From: Naegleria gruberi
Taxonomy: Eukaryota
Strand: one strand, 5' to 3'
Assembly: GCA_000004985.1 (NCBI GenBank)
Contig: GG738846.1
Length of the DNA stretch: 64,000 nucleotides
Positions 2,267 through 55,040 of this stretch are shown one piece after another; within the stretch, counting starts at the first letter, position 1, and each line of letters opens with the position of its first letter. The notes below the pieces were generated by a model, which was not told where the DNA came from, searched no databases, and saw nothing but the letters and a program-made list of their open reading frames with translations. The position numbers and the translations under genes are program-made.

Positions 2267-2340
2267 GCCGTCATAGCTCAGTTGGATAGAGCACAGGACT
2301 TCTAATCCTGGGGTCGTGGGTTCGAGCCCCATTGTCGGTA
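2267..2340 (+). tRNA. tRNA-Arg (anticodon TCT)
   Basis: Cloverleaf read directly: acceptor GCCGTCA/TGTCGGT (one T-T mismatch, one G-U), D-arm GCTC..GAGC, anticodon stem CAGGA/TCCTG with loop CTTCTAA (anticodon TCT at 2301-2303), 5-nt variable loop, T-arm GTGGG TTCGAGC CCCAT. No encoded CCA, as expected for a eukaryotic nuclear tRNA. Confidence 0.8.
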
Positions 2341-12580: not shown

Positions 12581-12868
12581 CTAATCTGTATTATCTGAAA
12601 GCATTAATGGTAGGTATTTTTTCAGTATTTCATTATCTGTCTCAAGATTATTCAAGAGATTGAGTACCAAAGAATGATTTTCCAAATTATCTAATCTTTC
12701 CTTGTTTAAAACTTCCAACATTACTAATCCAAATGAGTAGACATCACTTTGAGGAGATACTCTTCCGGTAATCTTTTGTCCTTTATATTCAAAATCTTTT
12801 TTTCTTTCAGGAGATCTGTATCATATTGTAATTCGAAACATGATTAAACAAAATTCTATTGAACTTAC
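12581..12868 (-). pseudogene. protein-kinase C-lobe fragment (subdomains VIII-XI) preceded by a 44-nt GTAAGT..AG intron; upstream exons missing, so likely a gene fragment or pseudogene
   Basis: Minus-strand translation gives SPERKKDFEYKGQKITGRVSPQSDVYSFGLVMLEVLNKERL, the kinase subdomain VIII-IX signature ([AS]PE .. D[VI]YS[FY]G[VI][VL][LM]). Only about 200 nt lie between this and the next gene, too little for an N-lobe. Joining to the candidate upstream exon creates an in-frame stop. Coordinates approximate (within about 2 nt). Confidence 0.45.
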
Positions 12869-13106
12869 CTCTAGAAAAAAAGTTACTACAGGAAAAGTTA
12901 GAATTATTAAATTGGTTTTGTTGGTTTTTATTTTGTTTCGTTATATATTTTGCAATTCACTCACTATTTGTGTAAACTCAGCTGCCATGGATCCCACATC
13001 CATTTTCGTATTCTATTAAATCATTAAATTCTTCCCAAACATCATCTGTTTCCACCGGAGTTGTTTTAAATTGTGTGGGGTTAATAATGGGAAAAAGTTA
13101 CAAAAA

Positions 13107-14059: not shown

Positions 14060-16685
14060 TCAGTTTAGAACCTTATTTAAATCCAAGCATTTATGAAGAA
14101 GGTAAAGAGCTACTTTGTCCTCTTCATAATACTTCTCTTGATAGGAAGACTGATGGAACTGAAATAGATCAATTGCTTCATCAAGGTCTCCTTCAAAAAA
14201 TTTGGCACATGCTTGGTTGTGGTGTTCCCAAGAATCTTTGAGACCACTGCTTGACTGTCTCCATTCTTCAGAATCTTCCATAGAGGTAGTTTCTCCTACC
14301 TGATACAACCTCGTTGGAAAACTTACTCTATCTTGTTTTGGTGAAATAATTGGAGAATTACCTTCATCATCTGCAAGCAGCTTTTTTTCTCCCACAAATC
14401 TGAAATTGTAACTATCCTTATTCTTTTCAAAAATTGACTCTGAAACAATGAGAGAAATTTCCAATTTGCTTGCATGCTTAATCAACAGCTGTAAATTGTG
14501 TAAATAACTTCCAAATATTGCATAATTCTTAATTTGAGAAGTCCCAACGTTACCACAAACACAGTGTTGTGAAAGTAACGAGCCTCTAAATGTAAACTTT
14601 AAATTTTGAATATGCGAATTCTTCCACTTCTTATCTCGAGTTGCTTTTAACCTTCTCAATATTTGATAAACAGAAAAAGTTGCTGACTCTTCATGTGAAC
14701 TCGATTCAATGATAGAATTCCAAGTAATAGTTATGTAATTATTCTCAAAGCTTCCTATTTGCCCATTGGTGGCTTGCGCAGTTTTCTGTATGATAACAAA
14801 ACAGTCATTGAGAACAGAAACAGTCTCATCAAAATCAAGAGCTGACAAGAAGTGATCCAAACCTTCAAAATAAATCATACCACTTGTTACTCTTCTCTTT
14901 TCCAATCCTAGACAAAACAATCGTTCTAGTTTTGGAGTAGTAGCTGCTGCATCTCTTGTTATCACAGATATTTGACCATTTACACTTCCTGAGGTCGATG
15001 TCAAAGAGTGTTGTCTTTCCAAGATCATTCTTCCTATTGTTGACTTTCTTAAATTGACTTCCATATCTAGCTTTTGAAGAATATGTGGCGGAAGGAATGC
15101 TCTGTAATTTTTCAGCCTTGTCAACATGGTTTGGAAATGCTTTTGTAAAATGTTGACCTCTGCCAATGATGACGGCCTCATCTGGATGTCTTCAAGTCTC
15201 ATGTTTGAAATTGATTCGAATACTGTTGTCAATTGTTGAAATGGGCGGAAGAGAGAAATGCTCGACACGACCCCCATCACTGCACCCACAATGGCAATAA
15301 TCAAACTTGACAGAATACCAACAATCAAGGCAATAAATAACTGACCAACATAGTCCCATTTTGGAACATTTAGCACTAGCAGCCAATCCACTCCTGCCTT
15401 ACAAAACCTATTCATGCAAATAACACTGTCTTCATTTGTAAAAAACTGGTACTCTCCACATTTGAGAGATTTCAAGTTATTATTCATAGAAGTGTAGATT
15501 AATTTGGAAACAGATCGTATCTTGGGTTGTTCAAAAGTTAGGGCAGTCATTCTTGTCTCTGTTCTATCTTGATTGAATTTAGAAACTGGTATATCAGGAA
15601 AACTTGCTATTATTGTTACATTTGAGGATTTCATTATACCACTACTTACAAACAACAATATAATTCGTCTCTATTTCAATAGCAAAAGCTACAGAGCCGC
15701 TTATAGCTTCAGTGACTGATTCAATGTAATTTGAAATTGACGATACACTGATATCAATTCCAAAATACCAATCATATGGTAGTTTTGAGCTATTGTCAGG
15801 ATGTGAATTGACACAACTCATAAATGTTATAGAAGGTAACGTTGGGTCAGTGTAAGACCTCGAAAATTGAGGCTTATTGGGGGAATTATTTGCAACACCC
15901 ATGATTTTAGACATATCAAATGGTCCCAGTATGACATCAGGAACATCCTTATTCTTGTAGTCACAAAATCCCTTATTTAAAAAATCATCACAATACCAAT
16001 AATATTGTCCAGTCTCATTAATTAACATTTGAGTTGGTTTTCCTCCTAATACTAACACTCCCAAATTCCCTCCCAGAGTGTCTCTTGGAAAAGTTTCTTT
16101 TAAATTGAAATGTTTCTGAAAAACTTACCCAAAATAAACAGTCACCATTAAGGTTGATAAATACGTAAATGCACTCTTATAAATCCTATATGTCAAAGAG
16201 TAGGCATTCTCAGTATTGTTATAATTAAAATCCTCCCACATTATATTCTTTGTTGTATCTGAAACAACTAGAACCTTATCAATGGTTTCATCGGTGAAAT
16301 TTACAACTTTTTCAATTTGTTGCCTTAATACATCCTGACTAAATTTTGAAACACTCGAACTAAAACAAGAAATCCATATTGTAGTGAGTAATAGAGAAGT
16401 AACAATTACTAAAGAGACCATAATTACTATTAAAACACACTTGATGGAGTATACAGTCCTCGTCTCTCCATTTCCTCCCTCATAATTTCCACCACTATTA
16501 TTATTATTATTATTATTATTATTATCCTGAATATATATTGAGGAAACTTTTTCATCATTCCCAGTTTCATTCCTAGAGGAATAACTTGCTTGCTCTTCCG
16601 ATGTATTAAATTTAATGCTAGCAATGTTGGGCAGTGAATCACGGTCATCATACGCAAGAACCTTATTATTTCTCATGTAATACAT
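14060..16685 (-). CDS. two-transmembrane sensor protein with a cytoplasmic class III nucleotidyl-cyclase homology domain that appears catalytically degenerate (pseudo-cyclase); 3 exons
   Basis: Exons are complement(16129..16685), complement(15650..16083) and complement(14060..15606), joined by a 45-nt and a 43-nt GTAAGT..AG intron. The first intron removes the in-frame TAA that separates two same-frame track ORFs; the second restores the frame. Topology: TM1 (VLIVIMVSLVIVTSLLLTTIWI), an extracellular segment of about 330 aa, TM2 (LFIALIVGILSSLIIAIVGAVMGV), then a cyclase-homology region. LNDCFVIIQKTAQATNGQIGSF resembles [25 protein letters not shown], and FRGSLLSQHCVCGNVGTSQIKNYAIFGSYLHN resembles [26 protein letters not shown]. 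The metal-binding Asp positions read E and S, and the transition-state Arg is replaced. Confidence 0.65.
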
Positions 16686-16950
16686 GTAATAATGGAGATA
16701 TTTGGAATGGTGTTTTTTTTATTCGTACGAGAGTTTGATTGCTCAAAGAGACCAACTTGAGCAGACTATATTTGGGAATTAGCACTTTCACTTTGCATGT
16801 TAATTTAAAGTACACTCTAAAACATTCTTCGCGAATTATATCTTTTTCTGATACCCAATGCCATTTATAATTGTTTTCAATTCAGCTACCCTATTTTCAA
16901 TTTTCCTTCTTGGTCGTATAAATGGAATCCCTTATATTTTGAAAGTTTGC

Positions 16951-18654
16951 TTATTTATTGTTTTTAGAGTCTCCCCCTATAAAATTCCTAAGCGTGCTAA
17001 TCCTTTGCATTAGCCTCTTGGCTTCTAAAAAATCGTCATCTTCATCACTCTCCTCTTCAAAAAGATCGAATTGTGGGGCTGTTTTTGTTATTTTTTCAAT
17101 TTTAGGTTCACTTGGTCGCAGAGATGGTTTGGACGTGTTGTGACTTCTATTCTTATTCTCTATTGAGGAGAAATAAGTTGAACTACTATTGTCACGAAGA
17201 AGTGAAGGCACTTTTTCTACTGCCTTCGTTGGTTTTGACATTTTTGGTTGAGAATCACCACGTAGTTTAGAATTGTTCAAGCTAGTTTGTGGCCTTGAAG
17301 ATAATGTTGTGGCTGGAGGCCTCTTCTCAATATTTGATTTCTCTTTCGGGAGAGTAACACCTTTTCTTTGAGCTAACAAGTCTCTGAATGAGGATGTTGA
17401 AGGTTGTTGTTGTACATTGTTACTTTGACTAGTTGTCACAGCAGGTTTCTTGTAACTTCCAACATTGGATATTGTAAATACAGAATCATTGATGAGTCCT
17501 AAATTTTTTTTCAATTGAGATTGAGCAGTGTTTGCAGAGTCTTTTTTGGAGAGAGACTTGCTCCTGTTTTCAGCATTTGATGAATTGAATCTCACCTTCT
17601 TAGCACTGGCAGATCGGTTTAGGATGGGGTTAGTTGCCTTAGTATCGATACTCTTATTGGTCTGAAGCATTGATTTTGAAAATTTCTTAGTTGAAGAGAA
17701 ATCTGCTGATGTTTGTAGTTTTTTGACATCGCTATTGTACACATTTTGGTTTTTTTCAACATCGTCCATTAGTCCGGCTAAACAAAACGCTCTGGAAGAA
17801 GTTTCCTTTGTTGCACCCTTCTTTTTAACAGAAGTGATTAATTTCCTCAGATCATCTGGTTTCATCACATTCTTGGACTGGGTTGGGCGATTTGGATCCT
17901 CTCGCTTAAGTCCAAGTCTATGGTTCTCGTTCCTTAATTTAATTCTCTCTTCTAATTGTTTTTTGAAAGACATGTCATGAGAATCATTTTCGTTATCAAT
18001 ATAAGAAGTTTGTTTCGGTATCAAGGTATCGAAATGATGCTCCAACGTTGGGCGTAAGTTGATAGAAGTTCTTATCGATGAAATATTGTTTGACTGTTGA
18101 GTTGATTTTGATGAAACCTGTTCATCCGGTTTTTGGGGGATTTTCCTCTTGAAATCGCTTAGCTTACTCACTGTTTGTTTACGCTTATCTACAGTTTTAG
18201 GATCAAGGGTCATCTTTTGCAAATTACTAATTTCCTCCAAAAAGTTTTCAGACTCTGCAATAAAAGAATCCTCCACTCTTGATGGCTTGTTAACATTTGA
18301 AAACAGTCTATCATATTCCAAGTTATTTGGGAAGGAATCATCATTACAATTGTAATTTTTAAATCTCGGAGAAGGAGGGGAAGGTTGTTGATTGTTTTGT
18401 TGCTTTTTTTCTCTCTTCTCCAAAAAGGCTTGAAATACATTATTTCTCTCTCTTCTGTCCACCCTCATTGTCTCCTCTTCGTATTCATGATGTAAATCAG
18501 AGTAGGGATCAGTGTTATCGTTTTGAAAATCGGAGGAAATGAGGTTTGATAAACGAAGATGAGAAGCAGCTGTTTTTCTTCTCGAAATGTTGTCTTCAAT
18601 CCTTAATATAGAGTTAAAGAGATCATTCTCATCATCCAAATCCTCGAGATTCAT
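16951..18654 (-). CDS. hypothetical S/N/K-rich low-complexity protein
   Basis: 567-aa uninterrupted ORF with coding-like periodicity and an acidic C-terminal patch (EEESDEDDDFLEAKRLMQRI). No recognisable domain. Confidence 0.4.
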   Translation of the reverse strand: MNLEDLDDENDLFNSILRIEDNISRRKTAASHLRLSNLISSDFQNDNTDPYSDLHHEYEEETMRVDRRERNNVFQAFLEKREKKQQNNQQPSPPSPRFKNYNCNDDSFPNNLEYDRLFSNVNKPSRVEDSFIAESENFLEEISNLQKMTLDPKTVDKRKQTVSKLSDFKRKIPQKPDEQVSSKSTQQSNNISSIRTSINLRPTLEHHFDTLIPKQTSYIDNENDSHDMSFKKQLEERIKLRNENHRLGLKREDPNRPTQSKNVMKPDDLRKLITSVKKKGATKETSSRAFCLAGLMDDVEKNQNVYNSDVKKLQTSADFSSTKKFSKSMLQTNKSIDTKATNPILNRSASAKKVRFNSSNAENRSKSLSKKDSANTAQSQLKKNLGLINDSVFTISNVGSYKKPAVTTSQSNNVQQQPSTSSFRDLLAQRKGVTLPKEKSNIEKRPPATTLSSRPQTSLNNSKLRGDSQPKMSKPTKAVEKVPSLLRDNSSSTYFSSIENKNRSHNTSKPSLRPSEPKIEKITKTAPQFDLFEEESDEDDDFLEAKRLMQRISTLRNFIGGDSKNNK

Positions 18655-18911
18655 AATTAAAAGCTTAGGAAGAAATTAATAATGATGAAGCTCCTGTTGT
18701 TGTGCTTTTATTTTTTTAATTATTAATGTAACGCTTGTAATGAGAAGGCGCCAAATCAAAGAGAAATAAACACCGTGGATTTCTCGTTATACTAATGTTT
18801 TATATTCTAGTTTTTGGATGAACATTTCAACCTAACAATTTTTTCTCTAAAGTTTTAGTTTTCAAAATTCTTAAATATTAGACAAACAGAGTTTTAGAGA
18901 TAATTGTGAGT

Positions 18912-20240
18912 TTATTGTTGATGTGAGGGTTTATATTTCATGCCACAAATGAATCCAATCCTAAATCCCTCAACGATCAAATTCAAATCATGAGTTGAAC
19001 GAACGGGCAGGCCATTAAAAATAGCAGCCATATCACTCTCAGCTTTGCAAATTTCTTGTAAGAGTACCAGAAACTCTGGTAAACTATTTGCACTGGTTAA
19101 TAGGTGACAGTTTTGGAGAATACTTCTTCCATCACCCAAGTGGAAATGTGGTTGATTTACAGTGGTGATATTATTATTGGTGATTGAGTTTGCAAATGTT
19201 ACATGTTGGGTTGGCCTCTGAGATGTTGAGGATAAGTATGCTCCTGTTTCATTATTTGATGAAGTATGATCGTTGGGAATTTGATTAAAATGTAAAAGGA
19301 TATTCTTAATGTAATTGACTTGGTCTGAACTAGTATCATTGATTAGGGAATTGAAGGTTTGTGAGCTAGATGATGATGGTTGATTTGGATTTGTTGTTGG
19401 ATTGAAACTGTACATTTGATTAATTTGACTTGGTTGGGAGTTTTTGAAAGGGGATGTTGCTTTTGAACCACTTGAATTTATCACTTCCTGCTTGACATCC
19501 TCATTTGGACCACCACTATCACTTGTTTCACTCTCCGAATTTGATCCTAGTTCAACATTTGCAGAGCTCATACCTTCACCAATTGGAATGATTCCCTTCT
19601 TAACTTGTTGTCTATATTTCTGGAGATGAGATTTGATATGTGTGGTGGTCAAATCAGGGAGATTCATCAATTCCAATATTTCCTTTGGTCTTGCCTCATT
19701 GAGTCCTAGCTGAGACACTGCTTTAACAAATAGATCATGCAATTCATTGGTCCAAACTAACCTCTTCTTATCGGCATGCTTTCGTTTAAAATCAGTTTCC
19801 ATGTGATAAAAGAGAGAACTCTCCATTGTGGCAGAACTTGATCCAACATTTCCCCTGGAAGACTCTGCTTGTTGTTTCCTCTTCTTATTACTGGAGAATC
19901 CTTGTTGTGGTGGATTATTCATGTTGTGAAATTGAAAGGAAGTTGTTGGAGGAGTGCTATTACTACTGCTTGCACATGTATTATTCACACTCACATTTCC
20001 ACTCGATTGAAACAAGAACATGTTGTTACTAATATTGTTGGCATTATTCAAATCCGTCATGTTAGATTGGTGTTGATAATTACTTCTACTACTATTGTTC
20101 CCGTTACTTCTTGCATTGTTAGATGGTGGATGGTGTTGTTCACCAAAGGTGAATTGTTGCTGTTGTTGATGATAGGGTTGTTGTTGTTGTTGTTGTTGGT
20201 GTTGAAAAGGGGAGGTGTGTGCAGGTGTTCTTTGAGGCAT
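18912..20240 (-). CDS. Myb-like (SHAQKYF/GARP class) DNA-binding transcription factor with polyQ/N tracts; possible additional polyQ 5' exon at about 20350..20596
   Basis: KKRLVWTNELHDLFVKAVSQLGLNEARPKEILELMNLPDLTTTHIKSHLQKYR matches the single-repeat Myb SHAQKY[FR] class. Upstream, a polyQ-coding ORF ends in TTTGG|GTAAGT; a 137-nt intron to CCTCAAAG| would join in frame (speculative). Confidence 0.7.
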   Translation of the reverse strand: MPQRTPAHTSPFQHQQQQQQQPYHQQQQQFTFGEQHHPPSNNARSNGNNSSRSNYQHQSNMTDLNNANNISNNMFLFQSSGNVSVNNTCASSSNSTPPTTSFQFHNMNNPPQQGFSSNKKRKQQAESSRGNVGSSSATMESSLFYHMETDFKRKHADKKRLVWTNELHDLFVKAVSQLGLNEARPKEILELMNLPDLTTTHIKSHLQKYRQQVKKGIIPIGEGMSSANVELGSNSESETSDSGGPNEDVKQEVINSSGSKATSPFKNSQPSQINQMYSFNPTTNPNQPSSSSSQTFNSLINDTSSDQVNYIKNILLHFNQIPNDHTSSNNETGAYLSSTSQRPTQHVTFANSITNNNITTVNQPHFHLGDGRSILQNCHLLTSANSLPEFLVLLQEICKAESDMAAIFNGLPVRSTHDLNLIVEGFRIGFICGMKYKPSHQQ

Positions 20241-20491
20241 ATCTTTTGTGAGTTAAATTGTGCGCCGAGTTAAATTAGATCAGGAAGAAGTTTAGTAATA
20301 TAAAATGCATGCAATAAAATGCCAAGTTGGTATTAATGTTGCAACACAGTAGGAAAGTTGACTTACCAAATTGAGAGAAGGAATTGTCTATAGTAGATTG
20401 AATGTGGTTTGGTTGAGGGGAAATGTAAGAGATGTTATTATTATTGTGATAATCAACCAGGAAGTTAATTAATTGGTTTGTGGTAAGGTCC

Positions 20492-20524
<33 letters not shown>

Positions 20525-20994
20525 CCTATTATTTTTGAGTAGTGAAATGGTGAGGATATGTTACTAGGGTTTTGTGGTTCGACCAATGATAACATGTTCT
20601 CTATGCCTAAATAAAACAAATAGATATTATACACGCACATCAATTAGTTAGATCACTTACACACATATCAGTTGAACTGCTTTTGTATTTAAACAGAAGG
20701 AGGGTAATTGATAATTCTGAAATTTCTCGACCAGATTGAATCAAAGTTAACCTGTTGGATTATGAAAGTATGTTGCAGATTCTTTTTTTTAAACATGGAT
20801 GTTTGTTGTGTGCCGTGTTGGTTAAGAATGAATTTAAGCTCAAATATTACCTGGAGAGAATATTAGTGTACTTAAAACGAAATTAGCAAACAATCTCTAA
20901 GAAATTTTTTCTGACCAAATTTGTACAAGTTACTGAGCATTTACGGTTGAGGAAGTTTTCATGTGTGGATACGAATACAAATAAAGATTTATTT

Positions 20995-21545
20995 GAGATA
21001 TTCGTCGAAAGATTCAGTCGTATGCCGGCTACGTCACGCATGTACAAATGCCACTACTCCTCAGGTACATGGAAAGTTTGTATGTGATTTGGAATGGGAA
21101 TAGGGCTTCTTCTCAATCTCATCTCTTGAGCTCCATACGCCTTGGAGATGAGTTTGACAATTTCAAAATCAATTCTAGATGTATTTAGAATACATGCATG
21201 ATTCATGTACGGTCACATGCCAGTGATAATCATGTAGTGCTGATGTACGCAGTACCTCCTATGATTACCATTTGGTACATGCTGACATGTCCCATGTGAC
21301 CATCAATTTGTCTGTGTCTGAATTATTGTTGATTTTGGTGATGGCCCATTCCTCCTCTAGAAATATTCTTCCAATTTGGACCACATGTATTACTAATGAA
21401 GAAATTGTACAAGAATGATGACATATGTCTTTGTACCCTACCTAGACAGAACATGTGTTTACATGATCATGATGATCATCACCATGTATCGACATGTGTT
21501 TACATGATGTGTTGTAGTTTGTCCTCCCATGATTTTTTAATCATC
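20995..21545. other. compositionally distinct GC-richer island, dense in CATG-containing palindromes, with a 17-bp direct repeat (acatgtgtttacatgat at 21451..21467 and 21492..21508)
   Basis: Seen directly: motifs such as catgtacggtcacatgcc and ggtacatgctgacatgtcccatgtgacc; a hairpin CTCATCTC..GAGATGAG near 21115-21155. It lies in a long (about 1.4 kb) divergent intergenic region between the Myb gene and the antistasin-like gene. No match to snRNA or SRP RNA consensus that I can recall. Confidence 0.3.
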
Positions 21546-22013: not shown

Positions 22014-23205
22014 ATGTCCAGATTATTGCTTGGTGTGTTGCTTGTTGCCATCATCTTGACTTGTGTTGCTTGTCAAGAGCATGTTGAAAAAGAGGGATGG
22101 GATGGTGTTGGCTTTTTCCTAGGTGAGAAATCTGCATCTCAACTCCAAATGGTATGTCAATATTATTATTTCACATCACTAATTATTGTATTATATATAT
22201 TGAACTCTCTAGACAAAAAGAAGAAGTGAAATTCTTTCAATTTTGAACAAACCACCACAACCTTCCAACAAGATTACATCCACTAATCAATCCATTAGAG
22301 ATGTCATTGCTAATGCTCAACTTCCAACATCATCTACTATTAAATTCCCAAATAATAGATTCCCTTCATGCACAAAACAACATTGTAAAAAATTCTGTCG
22401 TCATGGTTTCCAAACTGATGCTCGTGGTTGTCCAATGTGTGCATGTAAACAACCTTGTCCAACTTATAGAGCTTGTAAAAGAAAATGTGAGTTTGGCTAT
22501 GTTCTCGATGCAAATGGTTGTAATAGTAAATGCCAATGCAAAGAAGCTCCAGCTCTTGTCAAACCTAAACCAATATGCCCACAATATTTGTGCAGACGTC
22601 ATTGTCAATTTGGATTCAAAATTAATGAAAAGGGTTGCAGAACTTGTTCCTGTAATGAAAAACCAATCAAACCTAAACCATTAAGTATTTGTCCACTTTA
22701 TAGATGTAGACGTCATTGTCAATTTGGATTCAAAATTAATGAAAAGGGTTGCAGAACTTGTTCCTGTAATGAAAAACCAATCAAACCATCAAGTATTTGC
22801 CCACTTTATGGATGTAGACGTTACTGTCCATATGGATTCAAGATTAATGAAAAGGGATGTACTACTTGTTCCTGTAATGAAACGCCAAATACCACAAAGC
22901 CATTCCCAATCAAACCAATATGCCCACAATATTTGTGTAGACGTCATTGTCAATTTGGATTCAAGATTAATGAAAAGGGTTGCAGAACTTGTTCCTGTAA
23001 TGAAAAGCCAAATACCACAAAGCCTTTCCCAATCAAACCAAACCCAATCAAGCCAGATTTTATTAGAAGATTCATCCAAAATCAAACCAAGCCACTCAAG
23101 TTAAACAATGGCCAAAAAATTGAGACATTGTTTACCAAACCAGCTGTGTTGAGAGCTGAATCTGCTCCAGTCAGAACTTTTCCAAGAAGAGGTGGTAGAA
23201 GATAA
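22014..23205 (+). CDS. secreted protein with six antistasin-like cysteine-knot domains (serine-protease-inhibitor type); 2 exons
   Basis: Exon 1 is 22014..22151 (signal peptide MSRLLLGVLLVAIILTCVACQ, ends ..CAAATG|GTATGT). A 61-nt intron runs to CTCTAG|. Exon 2 is 22213..23205. The domains CRRHCQFGFKINEKGCRTCSCNEKP, CKRKCEFGYVLDANGCNSKCQCKE and CKKFCRHGFQTDARGCPMCACKQ match antistasin/hirustasin (CRVHCPHGFQRSRYGCEFCKC; CRIRCKYGLKKDENGCEYPCSC). Confidence 0.75.
22545..23045 (+). repeat. four tandem, nearly identical coding repeats of about 117-129 nt (antistasin-like domains 3-6), separated by PKP/PIKP linkers
   Basis: The nucleotide strings ...tgtagacgtcattgtcaatttggattcaa[a/g]attaatgaaaagggttgcagaacttgttcctgtaatgaaaa... 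recur with only a few substitutions. The track shows mirror-image spurious ORFs in other frames, as expected for tandem repeats. Confidence 0.8.
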
Positions 23206-27441: not shown

Positions 27442-27948
27442 ATGGACGGAAACAATTATTACTCTCCAACAGCACAATCACCAGGTGCTACCTATGCTTC
27501 GCCACACTATGTATCACCATCATCATATACACCAGGTGGTGTACCAATGTCTCCTAATGCCACATCTAATCCTTTCCAACCTTCATCTCACCAACAACAA
27601 TTGCAAGAAAGCTTGCCATCTTTGAATCAACCATCTAGTACTACTGCTAAGCGTGAAAAAACTGTAGCTGTTGTTTATATTTGCGGACATTGTGCTGTTT
27701 TGAACACTATTAAACAAGGTGATGCTATCCGTTGTAAGAATTGTGGTTATCGTATCATGTACAAACAAAGAACGACGAGAAGTAAGTGTTATTTGTGTTT
27801 TGTATGATGACTAATTTGATTGTTATTGTTTTGTTGAAAAATAACGTTGTTTGGATTGATTTAAAACTATTTCTAAATGTAATGAATTTTATTGTGGAAT
27901 TTTATGGAAATTATAACAAAATTAGAGATCCAATTTGAAGCTAGATAA
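27442..27948 (+). CDS. DNA-directed RNA polymerases I/II/III subunit RPABC4 (Rpb12/Rpc10) with an unusual S/P/Y-rich N-terminal extension; 2 exons
   Basis: Exon 1 is 27442..27781 (..KQRTTR then A|GTAAGT). A 144-nt intron runs to ..AAATTAG|. Exon 2 is 27926..27948 (KIQFEAR*). The core [42 protein letters not shown] matches human POLR2[43 protein letters not shown], including the C-terminal VVFDAR tail restored by splicing. Confidence 0.75.
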
Positions 27949-33264: not shown

Positions 33265-34853
33265 TTACTTGTTTTCATTATATTCAAAACTTAAACCCTT
33301 ATTTTGTCTAATTTTTTCCAAAGCATATTTCAAATTATCAATATTGGATTGAATTGTTCCTGTTAGTGTGAGTAGCTTATCTTCACTATCTAAAACGTCT
33401 ACTGAAAGTGTAAAAGGATTATATCGTAAAGCGAATGGTCGATTCAGTTTTGTGGAAGCAAATTTTCTCATTTGGTCTTTCATGGCATCAAAACTGTTGG
33501 CAACATAATAGACAGGTTGATAGGTTGTAATTGGATAGACATGATTACAGGCAACTTCTGGATCAAATGGTCTATATTCTGGTTTGTTTCCAGTTTTTAC
33601 ATCAATTCCATCAATACTATATTTCAATTCTCCAAAAGAGCTTAACAATCCAGCTCCATAAGCCTTATTTCTAGGAATACCATCTTTATCGTTTTGCACA
33701 CAAACTCCAAATTCAACTGTATACCAATAGAGTCTGACAAGTTTTTCAATATCTTCATCACTAGCTCCCAGAGATGCCAAACCAATTTGTTGACTGAAAT
33801 CAGCAAAATCAGAATCAGCAAATAATGGGGCGTGACCTAATAATTCATGTACAAGATCAGGTTCTATAGTATTTCATAAAATCATTGGTTAAGGTATTAA
33901 TCATTTGTGATAGATTAATGAAAGTACAATAGAATATTAATCCAAATTGAAAATGAAAAATCTAACCTACCTGGAGTATAGAAGGGAACAGAGTGATGAC
34001 GAATATATTGAGTACTGTGAAAAACTCTAAAAGCAAGTCCATTCAAGAAATCTCTTGCACTTTACAATCATGGAATGAGTAAAAAAATAGATACGAAACC
34101 TCTTACCTTAACAAACCACTCACTGGTCTCAAACGGAAACCAGTAACACCCTGTAAAAATTGGGAAACATCTTCCAATTGGGGAATGTTATTTTCAGAGT
34201 AGCCACAATTTTGCATAAGGAGTGGGAAAATGTAATTATATTGTTCACAAGCATAGGTTGGATAAAGTGCTGTTAATTCATTATAAATAATACGCCAGGT
34301 ATCAATTTCTGATTTTGCGTAGGCAACTTTTGGGATTGGTTCATTGATTTTATAAGTCTTGGCAATTTCTGCAATGTGTTTTCTTCTGTTACGATATTCG
34401 GAATCGGTAAATCCAGGCTGAAATAGAAACCTTTCGAAACAATGAAAATATTAACAAAACTTACATGATCAGATTCCAACTCTGCACCAGCTTCCAAAGT
34501 CTCAGATGAAAAGTAGTCAATATCCGATAATTTTCTTGGAAACCAAGGAATTGATTTTCCTCCCAACAATTTAACTTCATTGCAATATTTAGATTGTTTT
34601 AATTCAGTGATGGCCTTGTCGAGTTGTTCATTGGAAACGTCTTCATCAACATCAACAACAAAGTTAAACACTTCTTTAGAGTGACGTACAGGTCTGATTT
34701 GCAGATAAATTAAATTTACAGTTGATTCTTTAAAACCTACTTGGATTCAATTTTTGTTAAATTGACTTTGTTTCGGGAGAGAACATCAAGTGATGATTTT
34801 AATGTTCCAACACTGTGGGAGAGAGTTAAAAAGAGAGAACGATGATTTACCAT
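33265..34853 (-). CDS. biopterin-dependent aromatic amino acid hydroxylase (phenylalanine-4-hydroxylase type); 5 exons
   Basis: Exons are complement(34741..34853), (34465..34693), (34107..34417), (33971..34059) and (33265..33863). Introns are 47, 47, 47 and 107 nt, with GTAGGT/GTAAGT/GTAAGA donors. The spliced translation matches human PAH block by block: ACT domain LTKIESKP; [29 protein letters not shown]|[13 protein letters not shown]; [45 protein letters not shown]|[22 protein letters not shown]; [15 protein letters not shown]; [21 protein letters not shown]; [13 protein letters not shown]. Confidence 0.85.
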
Positions 34854-37269: not shown

Positions 37270-38292
37270 TTATATGATTTGTTTAGTATTATAGCTGGCA
37301 CAGTTTGAACATTTCATTCCAAAGACATGGAAATCAGCTTCACCCTTATTCAAGCATTCATTACAAAGTATATTAACCTTCTTTCTAAATTCTTGTGGCA
37401 TGGGAGAGTTTTGAATTTCTCTATCCATTAATTCAGTATCAATATCAACCATGTATTTTTGGCATAGTGGACAATTGTAAACTCGGTTTTTAAGCATGGA
37501 TTTGAAGCAACTAGAGTGCATTGGATGACCACACTTTAATAAGTGAACACTACTCGTTGAAGAAAAGAGATTTTCCAAACAAACAGGACAATTCGAATGC
37601 ATTGAATTTGGAATACATTTGTGACTTGGAGCCATACAAGCTCCACAAGTGTAACAATGAATAAATTGCTCTCTCTTTCCAATTCTACAAATTTTGCAAC
37701 CCTAATAATAATAATAATTCACACAGAGTCATTAAATTGATAAAATAAATTATTGACATACCTCACAATGATAAATTGAACGATTTTTATCGTTACTATA
37801 AATGTGACAAATTGTGCAAGAATAAAATTCTCCAAATTGGGTATTACAATTTGGATTTTCACAAATTACATTATCACTTGACTGTTCCAACTGACATCTC
37901 ATACATTTAATTCTTTCCACAGAATATCTATCCATTTGTTCAACTTTACATTTACATTTCTGGAATGCCTCTGCATCATGGCACAATCTACACCAATAAA
38001 ACTCCTTACAGCATGGTGATTGAATCATACAATTATGAGGATAGTGTGAACAACCCAAATCAGTTGAATAAGTTTTAGTATCTAACCCTTCCGAAGAATT
38101 TTCCTCTTGTTTTTCCTCCTCAGTTTCATCCTCCTCTATTGATACATCGTCATCATAATGATCGGAACCATCAATACTTTCCCAATCCTCTTCATTGTCC
38201 TCCTCCGCATTTTCGCCTTGTTGTTGTTGTTGTGGGGTGGTATCTTCTTCGTTGTGTTCTGCCATGTTGTTGTGTTGTTCTTCTTCACTCAT
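37270..38292 (-). CDS. CHY zinc-finger / RING-H2 E3 ubiquitin ligase (Pirh2/RCHY1-like); 2 exons
   Basis: Exons are complement(37762..38292) and complement(37270..37701), joined by a 60-nt GTATGT..TTATTAG intron (phase 0). The spliced sequence YHCEGCKICRIGKREQFIHCYTCGACM..NCPVCLENLFSS..LKCGHPMHSSCF..YNCPLCQK..LCNECLNKGEADFHVFGMKCSNCASYNT is colinear with human RCHY1: CHY finger, CTCHY, RING-H2 and zinc ribbon. Confidence 0.8.
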
Positions 38293-38391: not shown

Positions 38392-41300
38392 TTGATTTAT
38401 TCTTCAGATCAAACTGAACCATTGAGACAGACGAGCGAGAGAAACCAACAAAATTTAGAATTTTTAGAAAAATTAGAAAAAAATCCTCCCTTTCTCTTCT
38501 TCAACATCGCAACACTTGTCGTACTACTCACTCGTCGACACAACATCAGAAAACGATCGGATTGTGCAATAATTGGACGAGTCATGAGAGAGACACAACA
38601 TTTAATTGTAGAGACAGATAATGGTGGATTTCATATTATTAGCTCTCTTTCAAGAAGAAGAGACACACAAATAATAACTATCGAAAAGTATACTGGACAA
38701 TTGTTGTATACAGGTCATCCGGGTGTAGATCTTTTCTATTCTCCTCAAGATGCTCTCAAATTTCTGTCCAAAGATAAGAAGAATATAAAGAATGTAACGT
38801 AGGTAGTTTAAATAGAATGCAAGCATCATCATTACATTGACTATATAGAAAATGTCACTCAATCATTGGTTATACAGTAATTGGATCTTGTGGCTATTTA
38901 TTTATTTGTACAAAAGTTAGTTTGGATTTGGTACTTCCACCTAATCATCATGTTTATACAATAAGAGAAACTGAGACAATAACAATTCCACTCACCTATC
39001 CTCATCGTATCACTAAAGCAGAGGTTAAAAATTGTGAATTAATGACAGAGTTCCAATTGAAAGGCCTACATTTCTATTGTGAAACATATGACCTGACAAG
39101 ACCATTCCCATCAACCCATTCTCCCCAAGATTATACGGAAGAATTTTGTTGGAATATTCACTTGACGGAGAGTTTTAGAAAAATTAGAATGAGAAGTTGG
39201 TGTTGTGTTTTACTCCAAGGTGTTGCTAGATCATCAGGACCTGTCAAATGTAAAGAGAAGGATGAATATATTTTAAAAAGAGGAAGAGAAGCCCTTCTCA
39301 ATTTTAATGAACTATTAGATTCTGCCGAGGAGGTCAATTCTACTGAATCTATCGGTAATGTGAATTTGGCAATTATTTGTAGAAAGAGTTGCCTCAATCC
39401 AGGAACAAGATACAATGCAAGAGGATTGAATGACAAGTCAAGTCCTGGTAATGAATATGAATCAGAACAAATTTTATGGAGATCATATAATGGAAACATA
39501 ATGTTTAGTACTTTTGTTTGGAGAAGAGGCACTGTTCCTATCCACTGGAGAAGTGAACTCAATAATGCAGTACAAGATGCAAGTATTATCATTTCTGACA
39601 AACCCTATGAAAACATTGATGTATACTATAAGAGAATTGTTGATAGGTACAATAATCAACCTATCACTATTATTAATTTACTTCGTTCAAAAGAAATTCA
39701 CCCAGAAGAAGGAAATTTGACTCATCATTTTAGAGAATCCTTAAAGGTTGTTAAAAAGTTGATGGCCATAGATCAATTGGAAATGTTAGAATTTGATTGG
39801 CACACTCTTCATAAAACCGATGGTACTGAGAAAGCTGTAAAAAAGTTGTGGACCCTCGTTTCTCCAAAGTTAAGAGGTGCTGGTGTAACAACTGGTATAA
39901 TGAGAGTTTCATCTCATGGAACTGTTGTAGATATGAAGCTGTGGAAAAAACAAAGTGGTATTGTAAGAGTGAATTGTGCAGACTCTCTCGATAGAACCAA
40001 TCTCATTTGTTTTTTCAATTCCATTCAAGTTTTGGCAGAACAGTGTCGTCAACTTGGTGTTTCGCTTTGTGATCCATCAGGTGACTTTTCTGAGAGTTGG
40101 AAGAGTTTGGACTATACTCTTCAACAGGTAAAGGATGAGTTTGACTCTACTCTCCTTCTCAAATTGGCAGAAATTTATGTAAATGTTGGAGATGTATGTG
40201 CCACTCTTTATACTAATACGGTTGCAATGCATACTTCACCAATGCGTGAGTTTGCTCAACACTTAGGAGCTGCTCCTAACAATACCAAGCTCATTGTGGA
40301 GAGAAGAATTCAAAATGTTCTCAAGGACAAAATTCGTCAACAACAATACGAAATGTTTTTGGGTTTGAACTTGTCCAGATACTTTCCATCACATATTGTC
40401 AATACCAAGTATGGAGAATTGAGATATGTGAGTCACTATCCAACATTTATCTTTAAATCAGTTCCAAAAGAAATTCCATACAAGACAACAGAAGAGAGAG
40501 CTTTGATAAGAAGTGGATTTTCTCATCATTGGATTTGTCCAAGAGATTTTGATTTTATTGAAGTTCAAATTTACTTGCCATTCTATTGTAGAGTGACAGA
40601 GCTTGCTCTCACTATTAGACACGGTCTCAATGATTCAACTTCTCCTTCCAAGATGGATGTATTTGTTGGTACTCACCTTGATGATTGCCTTGTTGGTTTC
40701 CAAGAGCTTAACATTCCACGTTGTGAAGATGGAACTAAACTGATTTATACTTTACCTCCTCAAATTTCAGGAATTCCTGAAAACTCATCACTCTACGATT
40801 TTGAGGGAAGTGATGCAAGTTCAAAGATGAGAGTTGTAAGAATAATATTCTATGGCATCCCTCCTTGTAGTTGCATGACCATGGGTCAGATTCAAGTATT
40901 TGGTTCAGTTGACACACTTCTCAATCCATCTCAATCACCTAAGGAGTTTTATTTGGAACTTTTAAAGGCATCCTCTCAAAACGAAGTAGAACAAGTTCTG
41001 GATAATCTTGAAAAACAACAAGTTGAAGTTTCTAGAAGAAAAGCTGAGGAAATCAAGGTATTGGAAAAACAAGTTGAGAGGGAAGAAGAGGTCGAACGTA
41101 ATGAATCCTCCTTCAGTGACATTATTAAGGATGGTACAGCAGTTGAATTCACACAGGACCAAGAAGAAGAAGGAAGCAATACCGCTATTAGCTCCACAAG
41201 TAGTAGTAGTGTACCTACTAGCATTGTTGCCACTGACAATCCACAAAATGCCATTCTCATCGAAGATGTAACAAGCCAAGCCAAGATTAATGCCAATGCT

Positions 41301-43065
41301 TTGGATTCTATATTTGATGACTATTTTGAGAAGAGCAGAGAAAGTGGTACTGAAAGTTTGGAAAACTTCCTTCAAACCTCCAAATCAAACACTACTGCTA
41401 TCAAACTTGATGTCAAAGATAAACTGATAGAAATGATTAACAACCAGGATGAAACTTTGAGAGCTCTCAGAAATGACAAGTCGAGATCCCTTGAAAAGTA
41501 CTACAAGTTTGTACAAACCAAGGTTCCTACTACAACCTCAGAGATGAATTTTACAGACTCTTTAGAGTTGGAACTTGCTAGATTGAAGCTCTATATCAGT
41601 CCTCACGAAAGAGATAATCTTTTGGTAGAGAATAACTATAAGATTGACAAGTTCGATCCAAATCAATATATATATACCAGAGATTCCAAAGTAGAGAAAT
41701 CTATTAGAAAATCTATGGAAACCTCCACCTGTTCCATGTGTAAGACCAGCATCAAGCTGAGAAAATCTTCATGCCGCTACTGTAGACACTCATTCTGTAA
41801 AAACTGCATGTCCAAGTCAAAGTGTGAAATTATTGAATTCAACTGGAAGAATCCTTCATCAGTATGTATTGAATGCTCATCAACAATTGCCAAGCAAAAG
41901 GAAATGATTTCTGAAATTCAAGAACATATCACAATAGAATCTGGAAAATCCAAGCTTGCAACCAAGAATATTACTAGACTTTTTACTGAGCTCTATCCAC
42001 CAATTTCCCAATCAAGAAAAATGATGAAAAAACACGAGAAGGAAACCCTATGTTCAGAATTTCCAAGTAGTGGTATTTTAAGTTCTGTAGACACAGCTGC
42101 CAATTCACCACCAATAGAATCAATTCTCTTCCCACCTGACATTTTACCTTTGGAATATTGGTATGCCCCTCCTGGTATTGATACAGTTACCATCATTATT
42201 CTTTTACAATCATATGCTAAATTATCCAAGATGGTTCTTTTGGTTGACCAATTAGGTTACACACAGGATGATGCTCCAATATTTGATATTGCCATCGGTG
42301 AGAGGTTACCAACGTTTAAAAACATCACTAAATGGACTTTGGAAGCATCTAAAGCAAATGAAATGTTAGAATTCTCTTTCAATGGAGAGGGAACATCCAA
42401 CAATACTGACTTGTGTAGATTGGTAAGACTTACTGTAAAATTACCAGAAAGAGATCCATCTAACACTTCACCTCGTATTTTGCACATTGGAAGAATTTTA
42501 CTCTATGGAAAGGTTAATGATGATTCCTCTTCTCATCATGGTAATGATGCCTTAGAGACACTTGCTCCTAAGGAGCAGCAATATTTGGACGAAATACTTC
42601 GTGCCAAACCAACCATTCAAAGAGTTCAACTCAAGACTGAATCTAAATATGTTAAGGAGAGCAATTGCATTGATGTATCGTTGGCAGAAGTTGGAACCGT
42701 AGTGTCTGGCTTTAGAATTAACCTCACTCATACACAAGACACTATTCACTCACAAGTCAAACATATCAGAGTTAGCTTTTTATATGGTGAAAATGAAAAG
42801 AGTCTTGATGTTGCCTCACAAGTAATTGTTGAGAAAATTACTGTACCAAAGGTAGAACCAGGTGCTTCTCTCATTTTTGAATTTAATAAGAATTTCAACG
42901 TGGCTGTCAAGTTGGTAAGATTTGAGTTTTTGTCTAGTAAGTATTTTCTTTTCCAAATAATAATATTAATCATTCTTTTTATAATTCATTTGAACAGCTT
43001 ATGGATGTCATGTTAATGATATTTCAATTCCTCAAATTTTCCTATTCTCAAACACTGTCCAATAA
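38392..43065 (+). CDS. Sac-domain phosphoinositide phosphatase with C-terminal FYVE-like zinc finger; at least 3 exons, 5' end unresolved
   Basis: Exons are 38392..38798, 38921..42936 and 42998..43065. The introns are 122 nt (GTAGGT..GTTAG) and 61 nt (GTAAGT..GAACAG). The Sac catalytic motif is NCADSLDRTN (CX5R[TS]). The FYVE-like finger is CSMCKTSIKLRKSSCRYCRHSFCKNC. The ORF opens directly after an in-frame TGA with no ATG, and an acceptor-like ttattcttcag lies at about 38395, so a small upstream start exon is likely and was not found. Confidence 0.7.
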
Positions 43066-45869: not shown

Positions 45870-46732
45870 TTATTCTTTAATTTTCATAATTGGGTGACTT
45901 TCAATATTGTGCATATCATTGAGAATGGTGGCAACTGAGAGACGTAATTTGTGGAATTGTTCCAAAGTTACTTCCATAGTGACAATTCTTGAATTGGACA
46001 ATTCAAATTGCAATAAAATCAATGGTTTGAAAACCTTACTCATTACTGAATTACTGATAGTGACATCAACTCTCCACCTTACATTCACAATATGGTTAAA
46101 CCAACCAGTTTTATCAGTACTGAGAGCCATAAATTGCTCCTTCTTTGTTTCGTAAGCTTCCACAAATAAATTAATTAAATCTTCATCAAAATCCATTTCC
46201 TTCAATTGATCTTTCAAATATGTTATTTTAATTCTTTGTCTGATCATGGATCTAAGAATAATATAAAATCCTAATTAATTTGTAATAGTTTCGAAATGGA
46301 TATTAAATAATTTAAATATTAAAATAATAGGAAATTACCTGTAAATATCACTGAAAATAATCCAGTCTTGATCGAATAATCAATTTGTTCTTGTACATGT
46401 TTAGATTTCTTCTTTTGTTTTTCCCATGAAGACTTTAATTCTCGTTCTAATTGCCCATTAAGTGGAATGGCTAATTCTTCTTGTTTATCTTTCAATAATT
46501 CTCCAGTTAGGAATTTAATAACAAGTGATAACACTCTAGTGAGGGATCTCTTTGATATGTGAGGAAGAAGTGGTAATATTCTCAACACTTCAACGGGTAT
46601 CTTATCACCTATTATTTAATAATAATAATAATATTAATCCGATCCAATTTCCCATTTAACAATTATCATGACACAATTAATATCATCACACAGCAATCAC
46701 CTACCCAAAAATACGACTTCATCCAAAACCAT
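45870..46732 (-). CDS. COMM-domain protein (COMMD family); 3 exons
   Basis: Exons are complement(46705..46732) (MVLDEVVFL, end approximate), complement(46339..46608) and complement(45870..46270). Introns are 96 and 68 nt (GTAGGT and GTAATT donors). The C-terminal exon carries a COMM-like block (WFNHIVNVRWRVDVTISNS..KPLILLQFELSN..TMEVTLEQFHKLRLSVATILNDM). Confidence 0.55.
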
Positions 46733-46836: not shown

Positions 46837-47752
46837 TCATTTGTAATGTCTTTTAAAATCATGCCATTGAAATGCTGTATTATTTACAATGTTATTATTT
46901 GAAACATTATGCTGTTGTGATGGAGATGTAATAGTTCTTTTCCTTTTCTTTTCATCTTCCAAAACTTCCTCTTCTCCAATCTCTGTGTTGATTAGAGACA
47001 CTTCCTTTGGTAAATGTACTATTTCCTTGTTAGACTTGTTTTTTCCCCTCTGAGGTGAACGAACAACAGTTCTAAACCTTGGAGATTTGAAAGTTAGTAA
47101 CAATGCAGAGTCATTGAAGATATTTACATTCAATCTGAATTTGTCAACTGTTTGATCACTACTAGTTTCTCTAAATCTGAATTCCAATTTAGCTTTTGTG
47201 TAGCCATGCTATTATGTAAAGTCCACATATACATGACAGATGTGTACATGAACAATCATTTAATGCATGCAGAAACATGAAAAGAAAAGTAACATTACTT
47301 TAAATAGAAACCAAACAACATACCTTTGAAACATCTAAATCTTGACAACACCTTCCCTTAATACCTCGTTTTCCCTTTCTCTCACTCTTTACACAAACGA
47401 TTGGAGTATTGGTCATTCCACACACCAGTTCCACTTGTACCCACAAGTTCAAATTGCAATTCACAGTACATACTCGAAGAGTGTACTTAAGAGAGCTCAA
47501 CAAGTGATTTTCACCATTATATACCTCAAATATCAAATTCTTTGTTGATATGACAACTTCGTCTGGTGTGAGTAAAGGTTGTTGATCAAAGGCGTCATAG
47601 TTTTGGAGACCAACTATGCAATCTTCCTCCGAAAAGAAGGATGGTACATACACTTTCGAAGTGCCTCCAGTGTTGTACCTCTTCTTACTAATTTCATGAA
47701 TTAAATTCGGAGAATTGTGATGTTGTTGATAAGTGGTTGTTTGTTGTTCCAT
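46837..47752 (-). CDS. hypothetical protein; 2 exons
   Basis: Exons are complement(47324..47752) and complement(46837..47208), joined by a 115-nt GTATGT..ATAATAG intron (phase 0). It reads ..CCQDLDVSK|HGYTKAKLEFRF... Beta-rich N-terminal region and K/E-rich tail. No family recognised. Confidence 0.45.
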
Positions 47753-48276: not shown

Positions 48277-49251
48277 TTATTTCTTTTGGACAACTGTTTG
48301 ATTAATTTGACCAAAGATTGAAACCTTATTATTATCAAACATTTCCAATTGAATTCTATCACCAAACTTCATGAATGGAGTTGTAAATTGACCAGTTTCA
48401 ATCTTTTCAATCATTCTCTTTTCAGCAATACATGAACTACCACGTGATTGATCTTCATTACTGACAGTACCGCTTCCAATTATAGTACCAGCAGTGAGAG
48501 CACGAGTTTGTGTAACGTGTTGAATTAAATCATGGAATGAGAAGAACATTTCTGGTCCAGCATTTGGATTACCAAACAATTTACCATTCAAATGTGAAAT
48601 CAAATCACCATGACATCTGCCATCCTTCCACAATTCACCCAATTCATCCAAAGTAACAGCAAAAGGTGAGAAACTACTAGATGGCTTTGAAACAAAGAAT
48701 CCGAATTGTTTTTCCAATTCCTTTGGAATTAAATTACGTAAAGAAACATCATTACAAATCATGACCAATTTGATATATTGACCAGCTTGATCAGCTTTAG
48801 TACCCATTGGCACATCCTTTACAATAACAGCAACTTCACCTTCAAAATCAATTCCATAATCTTCACTAAAATGTTCAACATCTTGATTTGGTCCAATAAA
48901 AGTGCCACTTCCTCCTTGATAAACTAATGGATCTGTACGGAGTGTTTCTGGAGGTTGAGCATTACGTGCTTTACGAACAAGAACAATGTGATTAATGTAT
49001 GCACTACCATCGATCCATTCATAGGAACGTGGAAGTGGAGCCATTAAATTTTGTGATGACAATTCATGAGTGAATTGTATGGTCTTGTATAATTCTTCAA
49101 CTTTTGGATATAAATTATCCCAATCATCTAATAATTGTTGCATGGTTGTACTGATTTCGCTTGGGACTTCGGCATAGTGTGTACCTTCCTTGTTGACAAT
49201 GATTAATCTGCCATCTCTGGTTTGGTTTTTCAAGGTTGCGAATTTAACCAT
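48277..49251 (-). CDS. fumarylacetoacetate hydrolase (FAH) family enzyme (FAHD/acylpyruvase-like, single domain)
   Basis: 324-aa ORF with FAH-fold blocks (DFEGEVAVIVKDVPMG; LVMICNDVSLRNLIPKE; GTIIGSGTVSNED; KFGDRIQLEMFD). It lacks the N-terminal domain of true fumarylacetoacetase. Confidence 0.75.
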   Translation of the reverse strand: MVKFATLKNQTRDGRLIIVNKEGTHYAEVPSEISTTMQQLLDDWDNLYPKVEELYKTIQFTHELSSQNLMAPLPRSYEWIDGSAYINHIVLVRKARNAQPPETLRTDPLVYQGGSGTFIGPNQDVEHFSEDYGIDFEGEVAVIVKDVPMGTKADQAGQYIKLVMICNDVSLRNLIPKELEKQFGFFVSKPSSSFSPFAVTLDELGELWKDGRCHGDLISHLNGKLFGNPNAGPEMFFSFHDLIQHVTQTRALTAGTIIGSGTVSNEDQSRGSSCIAEKRMIEKIETGQFTTPFMKFGDRIQLEMFDNNKVSIFGQINQTVVQKK

Positions 49252-54681: not shown

Positions 54682-55040
54682 TTTTTAAAGATCTGAATAT
54701 TCTTTCAGGTAGTTCACTTATGCAGTAGTGAAAATGGTTGTAGCTGAGTAAGGATTCGTGTAGTGCCATGCAACATTTTGAAAAGTAACAAGTTTAGAAT
54801 AATTTAATTGAATGGAGTCAATCCTTTTTTTACTGCTGATCTTTTCATAATTCTATCAATACATGCCTTAATATGTGGACATGATTGCAAGTTTTGAGAT
54901 TGCAAGTTATGAATTTCTCTTACCTTAATTTTAACTTGTAATCAAAAATACTAGTAATCAATTTGAAAAATAGTGCTCAAACGGAAAATGAACTGGATTC
55001 AACGTCACTTGTCTACGAAGCGAAAGAATCAATTATTAAA

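Follow-up and report, generated by a model that had tools for sequence, protein, structure and literature searches.

Short introns above a floor near 43 nt in the phenylalanine 4-monooxygenase region of Naegleria gruberi

Introduction

The phenylalanine 4-monooxygenase (PAH) gene of Naegleria gruberi, an amoeboflagellate, occupies positions 33265-34853 (-) of a 64,000-nucleotide (nt) stretch of contig GG738846.1 (assembly GCA_000004985.1), hereafter the window, and three of its four introns share exactly the same length, 47 nt. Does this equality betray a tight class of introns that characterizes the organism, or does it belong to an ordinary distribution of short introns? A preliminary description of the window had reported strikingly uniform ultrashort introns of 43-47 nt with strong GTAAGT-type donors, and had proposed them as a useful taxonomic fingerprint. 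We consider it highly probable that the window is compact, gene-dense nuclear DNA of N. gruberi in which PAH carries four U2-type introns and in which intron lengths are right-skewed, rising from a hard floor near 43 nt with a modest accumulation just above it. The facts reported earlier are sound for PAH and for most of the genes cited, one item concerning a kinase is wrong, and the uniformity and diagnostic value of the introns were overstated. What we describe is a feature of a familiar kind, in a genome that is already published; its intron lengths vary among Naegleria species and are found outside the genus too.

The PAH gene and its introns

The PAH coding sequence runs from ATG to stop exactly over 33265-34853 (-) in five exons (34853-34741, 34693-34465, 34417-34107, 34059-33971 and 33863-33265), which join into a 1341-nt open reading frame (ORF) encoding 446 amino acids (aa). 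On the same strand, introns 1 (34694-34740; GTAGGT..CAG, phase 2), 2 (34418-34464; GTAAGT..CAG, phase 0) and 3 (34060-34106; GTAAGA..AAG, phase 2) each measure 47 nt, and intron 4 (33864-33970; GTAGGT..TAG, phase 1) measures 107 nt. After splicing, the 446-aa product equals the deposited N. gruberi phenylalanine 4-monooxygenase residue for residue (100% identity from end to end), and its alignment to solved PAH structures in the PDB passes without gaps over all four junctions, at IES(K/R)P, SDH|PGF, LLS|ARD and YTP|EPD. The exact protein match and the structure alignments together confirm the three 47-nt introns, intron 1 among them, that the preliminary description had read from the sequence.

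Gene models were obtained using a self-written Viterbi gene finder with a flat prior of 30-300 nt on intron length, followed by manual curation. Since this finder yields the identical PAH model, the 47-nt lengths are not the product of a length expectation. Under other settings, one run fused genes via 300-590-nt pseudo-introns and another missed the 89-nt PAH exon.

A gene of the fumarylacetoacetate-hydrolase family (FAA_hydro_N_2 and FAA_hydrolase domains; 48277-49251 (-)) lies 13 kb from PAH on the same strand. Both families take part in phenylalanine/tyrosine catabolism, and their proximity may be a coincidence.

Intron lengths in the window

The window holds 30 genes at a G+C content of about 34%, and 86% of it is coding sequence. 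Twelve of the 30 genes bear introns, or 0.63 introns per gene, which agrees with the 1.7 exons per gene published for the N. gruberi genome (PMC8296547). Curation gave 19 candidate introns in these 12 genes, 17 of which have outside support. The spliced models equal deposited N. gruberi NEG-M proteins exactly for five genes, all on a single scaffold of 1,001,995 bp. An exact-sequence look-up in public proteins confirmed three spliced models (a Myb "type-B response regulator", an antistasin-like protein and a predicted protein) and returned no match for seven others. In five of these seven the gene is supported by homology instead; the remaining two are a discarded 30-nt variant of a cyclase-like gene and the model-only gene at 46837-47752.

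The supported introns measure 43, 44, 45, 47, 47, 47, 50, 60, 61, 61, 68, 79, 96, 107, 124, 139 and 144 nt (n = 17), with a first quartile of 47, a median of 61, a third quartile of 96 and a mean of 74 nt. We asked how much of this supports the view that a tight, size-constrained class of 43-47 nt dominates N. gruberi introns and is diagnostic of the taxon. In its favor, six of the 17 fall within one 5-nt span, and a scan statistic on the top count in any such span returns P = 0.007 with a uniform null and 0.02 with a log-uniform one. No candidate shorter than 43 nt survives testing either; the sole shorter one, of 30 nt, is refuted by orthologue alignment. However, the other 11 supported introns spread over 50-144 nt, and when the three 47-nt introns of PAH are collapsed to one, P rises to 0.23-0.33, so that the clustering is significant only if these three are independent. 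As to the sharp peak by which a "minimal intron" class is recognized, the window offers a floor at 43 nt and six of 17 introns at 43-47 nt, with a P value that hinges on counting PAH three times. With a median of 61 nt and a range of 43-144 nt, "strikingly uniform" says too much, and a dominant tight class seems to us unlikely. What holds robustly in the window is a floor near 43 nt, a pile-up above it and a long tail to 144 nt.

Published values for the genus point the same way. The N. lovaniensis median intron is 80 bp (PMC6125883) and the published N. gruberi mean is 203 bp, and these figures do not suggest a dominant 43-47-nt class; the N. fowleri annotation used a minimum intron setting of 30 bp. 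A published length histogram for N. gruberi introns was not found in a literature search that did not extend to the 2010 genome paper; a 590-species paper contains nothing on Naegleria.

The window also differs from the genome at large, at 86% coding and a mean intron of 74 nt against published genome-wide values of 57.8% coding and 203 bp. Two explanations offer themselves: the region may be exceptionally dense, or long introns wrongly predicted in the reference may have inflated its intron statistics.

Splice signals and intron class

All 19 candidate introns begin with GT and end with AG. With one weak candidate set aside (n = 18), the donor opens with GTA in every case, +5 is G and +6 is T in 17 of 18 each, and the donors comprise GTAAGT (eight), GTAGGT (four), GTATGT (four), GTAAGA (one) and GTAATT (one). 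The pattern GTA[AGT]GT thus covers 16 of 18 introns, or 16 of 19 if the weak candidate is counted, and the strong GTAAGT-type donors of the preliminary description are borne out. The two strands together contain 23 GTAAGT hexamers where base composition predicts about 44, an approximately 2-fold depletion, and within gene spans eight of the ten sense-strand copies are intron donors, which makes the hexamer a very specific signal.

Acceptors are TAG in 12 introns, CAG in three and AAG in three (n = 18). They sit in an A/T-rich context where A is the commonest base at -5 and -4, and they show no polypyrimidine tract. The AAG acceptors, those of the introns at 34060-34106, 20243-20366 and 16084-16128 (all -), make up 3/18, a high share for a non-canonical base at -3. 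Intron G+C content is 24% overall (15-33% individually) against about 34% for the window. The introns yielded no convincing consensus for a branch point. YTRAY-like motifs, mostly TTAAT, occur in many but not all of them, as chance would produce at 76% A+T, and are missing from the 43-nt, the 45-nt and one 47-nt intron.

These observations, GT-AG ends, a GTRAGT-like donor and restoration of frame with a conserved protein, indicate that the introns are ordinary U2-type GT-AG spliceosomal introns. Donors of the GTRAGT type are in general complementary to the 5′ end of U1 small nuclear RNA. For the U12 type (donor /RTATCCTT, branch motif TCCTTAAC), no donor in the set starts with GTATCC or ATATCC. 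An in-frame stop lies inside 15 of the 19 candidates, among them each of the four with a length divisible by three, and in the remaining four candidates a stop would be reached at most about 190 nt from the donor upon retention. Retention of any intron is thus predicted to lead to a premature stop.

Could these interruptions be assembly frameshifts or signs of pseudogenes? Nothing about PAH suggests so, and such an explanation is plausible only at 53030-54681 and at a kinase-like relic at 12581-13003. Every supported interruption is GT..AG with a GTA donor and is A/T-richer than the window, and its removal restores frame and homology exactly. A near-identical second strain, represented by metagenome contigs (ENA ERZ929261, run ERR1078381, PRJEB11402) with 97.8-99.2% identity to 16536-21045 and 54374-55558, keeps the identical structure. 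We therefore give frameshifts and pseudogenes almost no credence as an explanation of the supported introns. By sequence identity, an N. gruberi-like strain is present in the PRJEB11402 sample; its contigs, being genomic and nearly identical to the window, are uninformative on transcripts or on the evolution of intron length.

Orthologous introns in other Naegleria species

The PAH orthologue of N. lovaniensis carries introns at the positions and phases of N. gruberi introns 1-3, with lengths of 184, 98 and 137 nt, and exons 2 and 3 measure 229 and 311 nt in both species. Intron 4 is absent from the N. lovaniensis orthologue. Introns 1-3 are thus old and predate the species split. In a cyclase-like gene (14060-16676 (-)), an intron of 43 nt in N. 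gruberi measures 73 nt in N. lovaniensis and 81 nt in N. fowleri, position and phase unchanged, and the two introns of a SAC9-like gene (38584-43065 (+)) measure 50 and 61 nt in N. gruberi against 307 and 92 nt in N. lovaniensis. Altogether, position and phase are common to six of the ten intron sites compared with N. lovaniensis. At the shared sites, introns span 73-307 nt in the congeners against 43-61 nt in N. gruberi, a 1.5- to 6-fold difference that further undermines a length class diagnostic of the taxon. Congener introns use GTA[AG]GT-type donors (with one GTGAGT) and TAG or CAG acceptors. From these alignments, the positions and phases of introns are conserved within Naegleria, and their lengths and interior sequences are not.

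The other four of the ten sites are species-specific within the genus. PAH intron 4 and a 45-nt cyclase-like intron occur in N. gruberi only, and a 128-nt SAC9 intron and a 57-nt cyclase-like intron in N. lovaniensis only.

Equal length alone could suggest that PAH introns 1-3 derive from a single copied element, either an introner-like or a duplicated intron. However, they show no similarity to one another beyond the splice sites (pairwise z of -0.8 to -1.0), and all three positions are occupied in N. lovaniensis by introns of different lengths, so that they predate the split of the two species. An origin by copying is accordingly all but refuted. Alignment of the PAH introns to their N. lovaniensis orthologues likewise yielded nothing above controls.

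N. gruberi has the shorter intron at each of the six shared sites (P = 0.03 in a sign test), a result much of which regression to the mean can explain since the genes were chosen for their short N. gruberi introns. A lineage-specific shrinkage of N. gruberi introns to a hard spliceosomal minimum of about 43-47 nt appears doubtful to us. It would account for the six shared introns, from three genes, being shorter despite the larger genome and larger published mean intron of N. gruberi. If it were true, the published N. gruberi intron statistics would be inflated by mis-annotation, and intron length would evolve fast and directionally within the genus, beside intron gain and loss.

Proposed recognition across the intron

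Long exons lie beside short introns in the window: exons of 1147, 1331, 1547 and 4088 nt adjoin introns of 44-124 nt, the 4088-nt one being an internal exon of the SAC9-like gene flanked by introns of 50 and 61 nt. Under intron definition, splicing efficiency depends on the length of the intron, not of the exon (reviewed in PMC3488318). Many of the flanking exons greatly exceed the length suited to exon definition, which gives sound reason to regard intron definition as the probable mode of splicing here.

We propose that a highly informative donor, GTA[AGT]GT, would pair over the short intron with an acceptor of the form [T>C,A]AG in A/T-rich context, U1 at the donor pairing with U2/U2AF-type factors at the branch point and acceptor. 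If efficiency is tied to intron length in this way, a steric minimum would result, and deletion bias or selection for compactness could push unconstrained introns toward that minimum and so generate the pile-up. The three 47-nt introns of PAH, which are old, would then have drifted down independently to near the spliceosome's minimum length, and their identical length would be a coincidence within the pile-up, reflecting neither a common origin nor a measured length.

Several points weigh against this interpretation of a floor with a modest pile-up. Three equal lengths among four introns have a probability of about 0.1-0.4% per gene given a smoothed background of the other introns; the equality is notable, though spotted after the fact, and leaves room for a sharper genome-wide mode at exactly about 47 nt. 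The published mean intron, 203 bp, is far from the 74 nt of the window. Introns in untranslated regions are invisible to our approach and those longer than 300 nt were excluded in the final run, even if a window that is 86% coding has little space left for long introns. For the use of the junctions we rely on homology and on an annotation that is in part a prediction; an N. gruberi RNA-seq data set is available as ENA PRJEB23822. Finally, the choice of genes for the orthologue comparison, mentioned above, favored short N. gruberi introns.

Other introns of the window

The cyclase-like gene (14060-16676 (-)) contains the shortest intron of the window, intron 2 (15607-15649 (-); 43 nt, GTAAGT..TAG), over which the orthologue alignment is gap-free at "NYIVV|SSFP". 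Intron 1 (16084-16128 (-); 45 nt, GTAAGT..AAG) follows from the family alignment: its removal yields a gap-free "VTVYFGDT", the same as in N. lovaniensis. Since the N. lovaniensis orthologue codes for this peptide without any intron, the 45-nt intron is confirmed independently of annotation. The lengths of 45 and 43 nt given earlier for this gene are therefore upheld by alignments with the N. lovaniensis and N. fowleri relatives. In the same gene, a 30-nt candidate (GTGACT..CAG) was ruled out because it forces a 5-aa insertion in the orthologue alignment.

In the DENN gene (56091-58553 (+)), intron 1 (57238-57281 (+); 44 nt, GTAAGT..TAG) interrupts the conserved FCFP motif in the alignment to DENND1B (3tw8), and this motif spanning the junction substantiates the 44-nt intron claimed for the gene. 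The DENND1B alignment also crosses the junction of intron 2 (57674-57752 (+); 79 nt, GTAAGT..TAG), after which the DENN Pfam match carries on into the next exon. The SAC9-like gene has introns at 38799-38848 (+) (50 nt, GTAGGT..TAG) and 42937-42997 (+) (61 nt, GTAAGT..CAG), and its spliced model of 1456 aa matches the deposited N. gruberi SAC9-like protein from end to end with 100% identity. In a CHY/RING (Pirh2-like) gene (37270-38292 (-)), the junction of an intron at 37702-37761 (-) (60 nt, GTATGT..TAG) falls within an unbroken YHCEGCKICRIG motif aligned to 7ynx, and the intron holds an in-frame stop.

Two introns interrupt a COMMD5-like gene (45870-46732 (-)). Over the first (46609-46704 (-); 96 nt, GTAGGT..TAG), "VVFL|GDKIPVEV" aligns to COMMD5 VSFLGAQLPPEV, with a weak E-value for the domain. 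The second (46271-46338 (-); 68 nt, GTAATT..TAG) is more weakly supported, by an alignment to COMMD5 (8f2r_E) that begins three residues ahead of the junction and then continues through it; to this extent the 68-nt second COMMD intron of the preliminary description stands.

Three further introns reside in genes whose spliced models equal deposited proteins exactly: the antistasin-like gene (22014-23205 (+); intron 22152-22212 (+), 61 nt, GTATGT..TAG; 376 aa, XP_002682687.1), the Myb "type-B response regulator" gene (18912-20595 (-); intron 20243-20366 (-), 124 nt, GTAAGT..AAG; 519 aa, XP_002682884.1) and a predicted-protein gene (55044-56007 (+); intron 55513-55651 (+), 139 nt, GTATGT..TAG; 274 aa, XP_002682690.1).

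The longest intron (27782-27925 (+); 144 nt, GTAAGT..TAG) belongs to the gene for the RNA polymerase subunit Rpb12/RPABC4 (27442-27948 (+)). Once it is removed, the protein ends in the canonical C-terminus YKQRTTRKIQFEAR, which aligns with YKKRTRRVVQYEAR of Pol II structures, and a 53-nt intron proposed by the finder was dropped in its favor. The spliced 120-aa model has no match in the public protein collection, and the reference model for this gene probably differs from it. The gene also has a low-complexity N-terminal extension of about 70 residues and a last exon of 23 nt.

Two candidates complete the set. The one at 47209-47323 (-) (115 nt, GTATGT..TAG) comes from the gene finder only, in a gene (46837-47752 (-)) with neither an exact protein match nor a Pfam hit. 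The other, at 54116-54171 (-) (56 nt, GTGAAT..CAG, 39% G+C), has an atypical donor and was proposed on the basis of the first-pass finder and a reading of the sequence. It is the only link between the two overlapping frames of an AAA-like P-loop gene at 53030-54681 (-), a join that may reflect a weak intron, a frameshift in the assembly or a pseudogene. The range of 60-144 nt given earlier for the other introns agrees with our lengths of 60, 61, 61, 68, 79, 96, 107, 115, 124, 139 and 144 nt, to which one of 50 nt must be added.

The exception among the genes cited earlier is a kinase fragment with a 44-nt intron: neither a kinase gene nor a fragment with such an intron exists in the window. 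It was not found by Pfam on all genes, by enumeration of every 38-52-nt segment with a strong donor, in the kinase-like relic or in the gene at the left edge, and the Pfam scan of all genes revealed no kinase domain elsewhere in the window. Kinase-like sequence is confined to 12581-13003 (-), where positions 179-214 of the PK_Tyr_Ser-Thr profile are matched alone, an in-frame TAG precedes "RPTPRDL", and the best candidate intron, of 53 nt, needs a 2-nt micro-exon. This relic is probably a decayed pseudogene fragment. The gene cut by the window's left edge is REJ/EGF-like and not a kinase. A 44-nt GTAAGA..AAG segment at 1676-1719 lies inside an unbroken ORF of 719 codons, and nowhere else in the window does a 44-nt segment with a strong donor join coding frames.

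A tRNA-Arg(TCT) gene is located at 2267-2340 (+), between two EGF/REJ receptor-like genes.

Consequences for annotation

The preliminary description had warned that ORF tracks split such genes, and rightly so: PAH is listed as separate ORFs of 171 and 132 aa. Public metagenome gene calls end at introns in two genes, with products of 445 aa (P0122) and 524 aa (P0131), the former being a shortened version of the 519-aa Myb protein. Prokaryote-style ORF callers split or shorten these genes, and public metagenome protein sets already contain such fragments from N. gruberi-like genes.

A homology search gave no NCBI N. gruberi protein entry for the cyclase-like gene; the only matches were the metagenome ORF that corresponds to its third exon (524 aa, 98% identical) and the N. 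lovaniensis and N. fowleri relatives. The deposited N. gruberi proteome apparently lacks at least this gene of the window, which has three exons and encodes a cyclase-like membrane protein. The protein has no Pfam domain at E ≤ 0.01, and the UniRef name of its N. fowleri relative is "Guanylate cyclase domain-containing". The floor of about 43 nt, the GTA[AGT]GT donor and the TAG-rich acceptor should help to tune gene finders and spliced aligners for Heterolobosea.

Comparison with known short-intron systems

Introns of about 15-21 nt are known from Stentor and Bigelowiella. Paramecium introns are given as about 25 nt in PMC5014332. Like the introns described here, ciliate and nucleomorph ultrashort introns are pressed against a minimum and produce premature stops when retained. 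However, their distribution is only a few nt wide and they are far shorter, whereas the N. gruberi introns have a floor of about 43 nt and spread over 100 nt. In place of a narrow peak at 15-35 nt as in ciliates, the window shows a minimum of 43 nt and a range to 144 nt, and 43-47 nt does not deserve the word "ultrashort" by protist standards.

A closer likeness is found in C. elegans, whose modal intron length is about 47 nt and whose acceptors carry an extended UUUUCAG consensus. Its introns have a first quartile of 47 and a median of 62 nt in a supplementary table of PMC6142364, machine-read and with the meaning of its columns inferred from the layout, and on that reading they nearly coincide with the 47 and 61 nt of the N. 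gruberi window. C. elegans and compact genomes such as those of S. pombe and Drosophila likewise show a pile-up above a floor of about 40-45 nt and a long right tail, and C. elegans has GT-AG introns and probably also an intron-definition architecture in common with N. gruberi. Given this near-equality of quartile and median, length is no fingerprint by itself, and by length and G+C content alone the window could be taken for nematode DNA; with congener introns of 73-307 nt besides, the taxonomic use proposed for these introns is not supported. N. gruberi differs from C. elegans in being intron-poor, with 0.6-0.7 introns per gene, and in acceptors that are mostly TAG and A-rich, AAG in 3/18, and devoid of a pyrimidine tract. 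As far as the sequence tells, the window matches the general intron-definition model in its short introns, its long exons (up to 4088 nt) and its informative donor. The biology is nothing new in kind, since recognition across short introns is the norm in compact eukaryotic genomes. What sets these introns apart more than their length is their acceptor context: TAG-rich, without a pyrimidine tract and with an occasional AAG.

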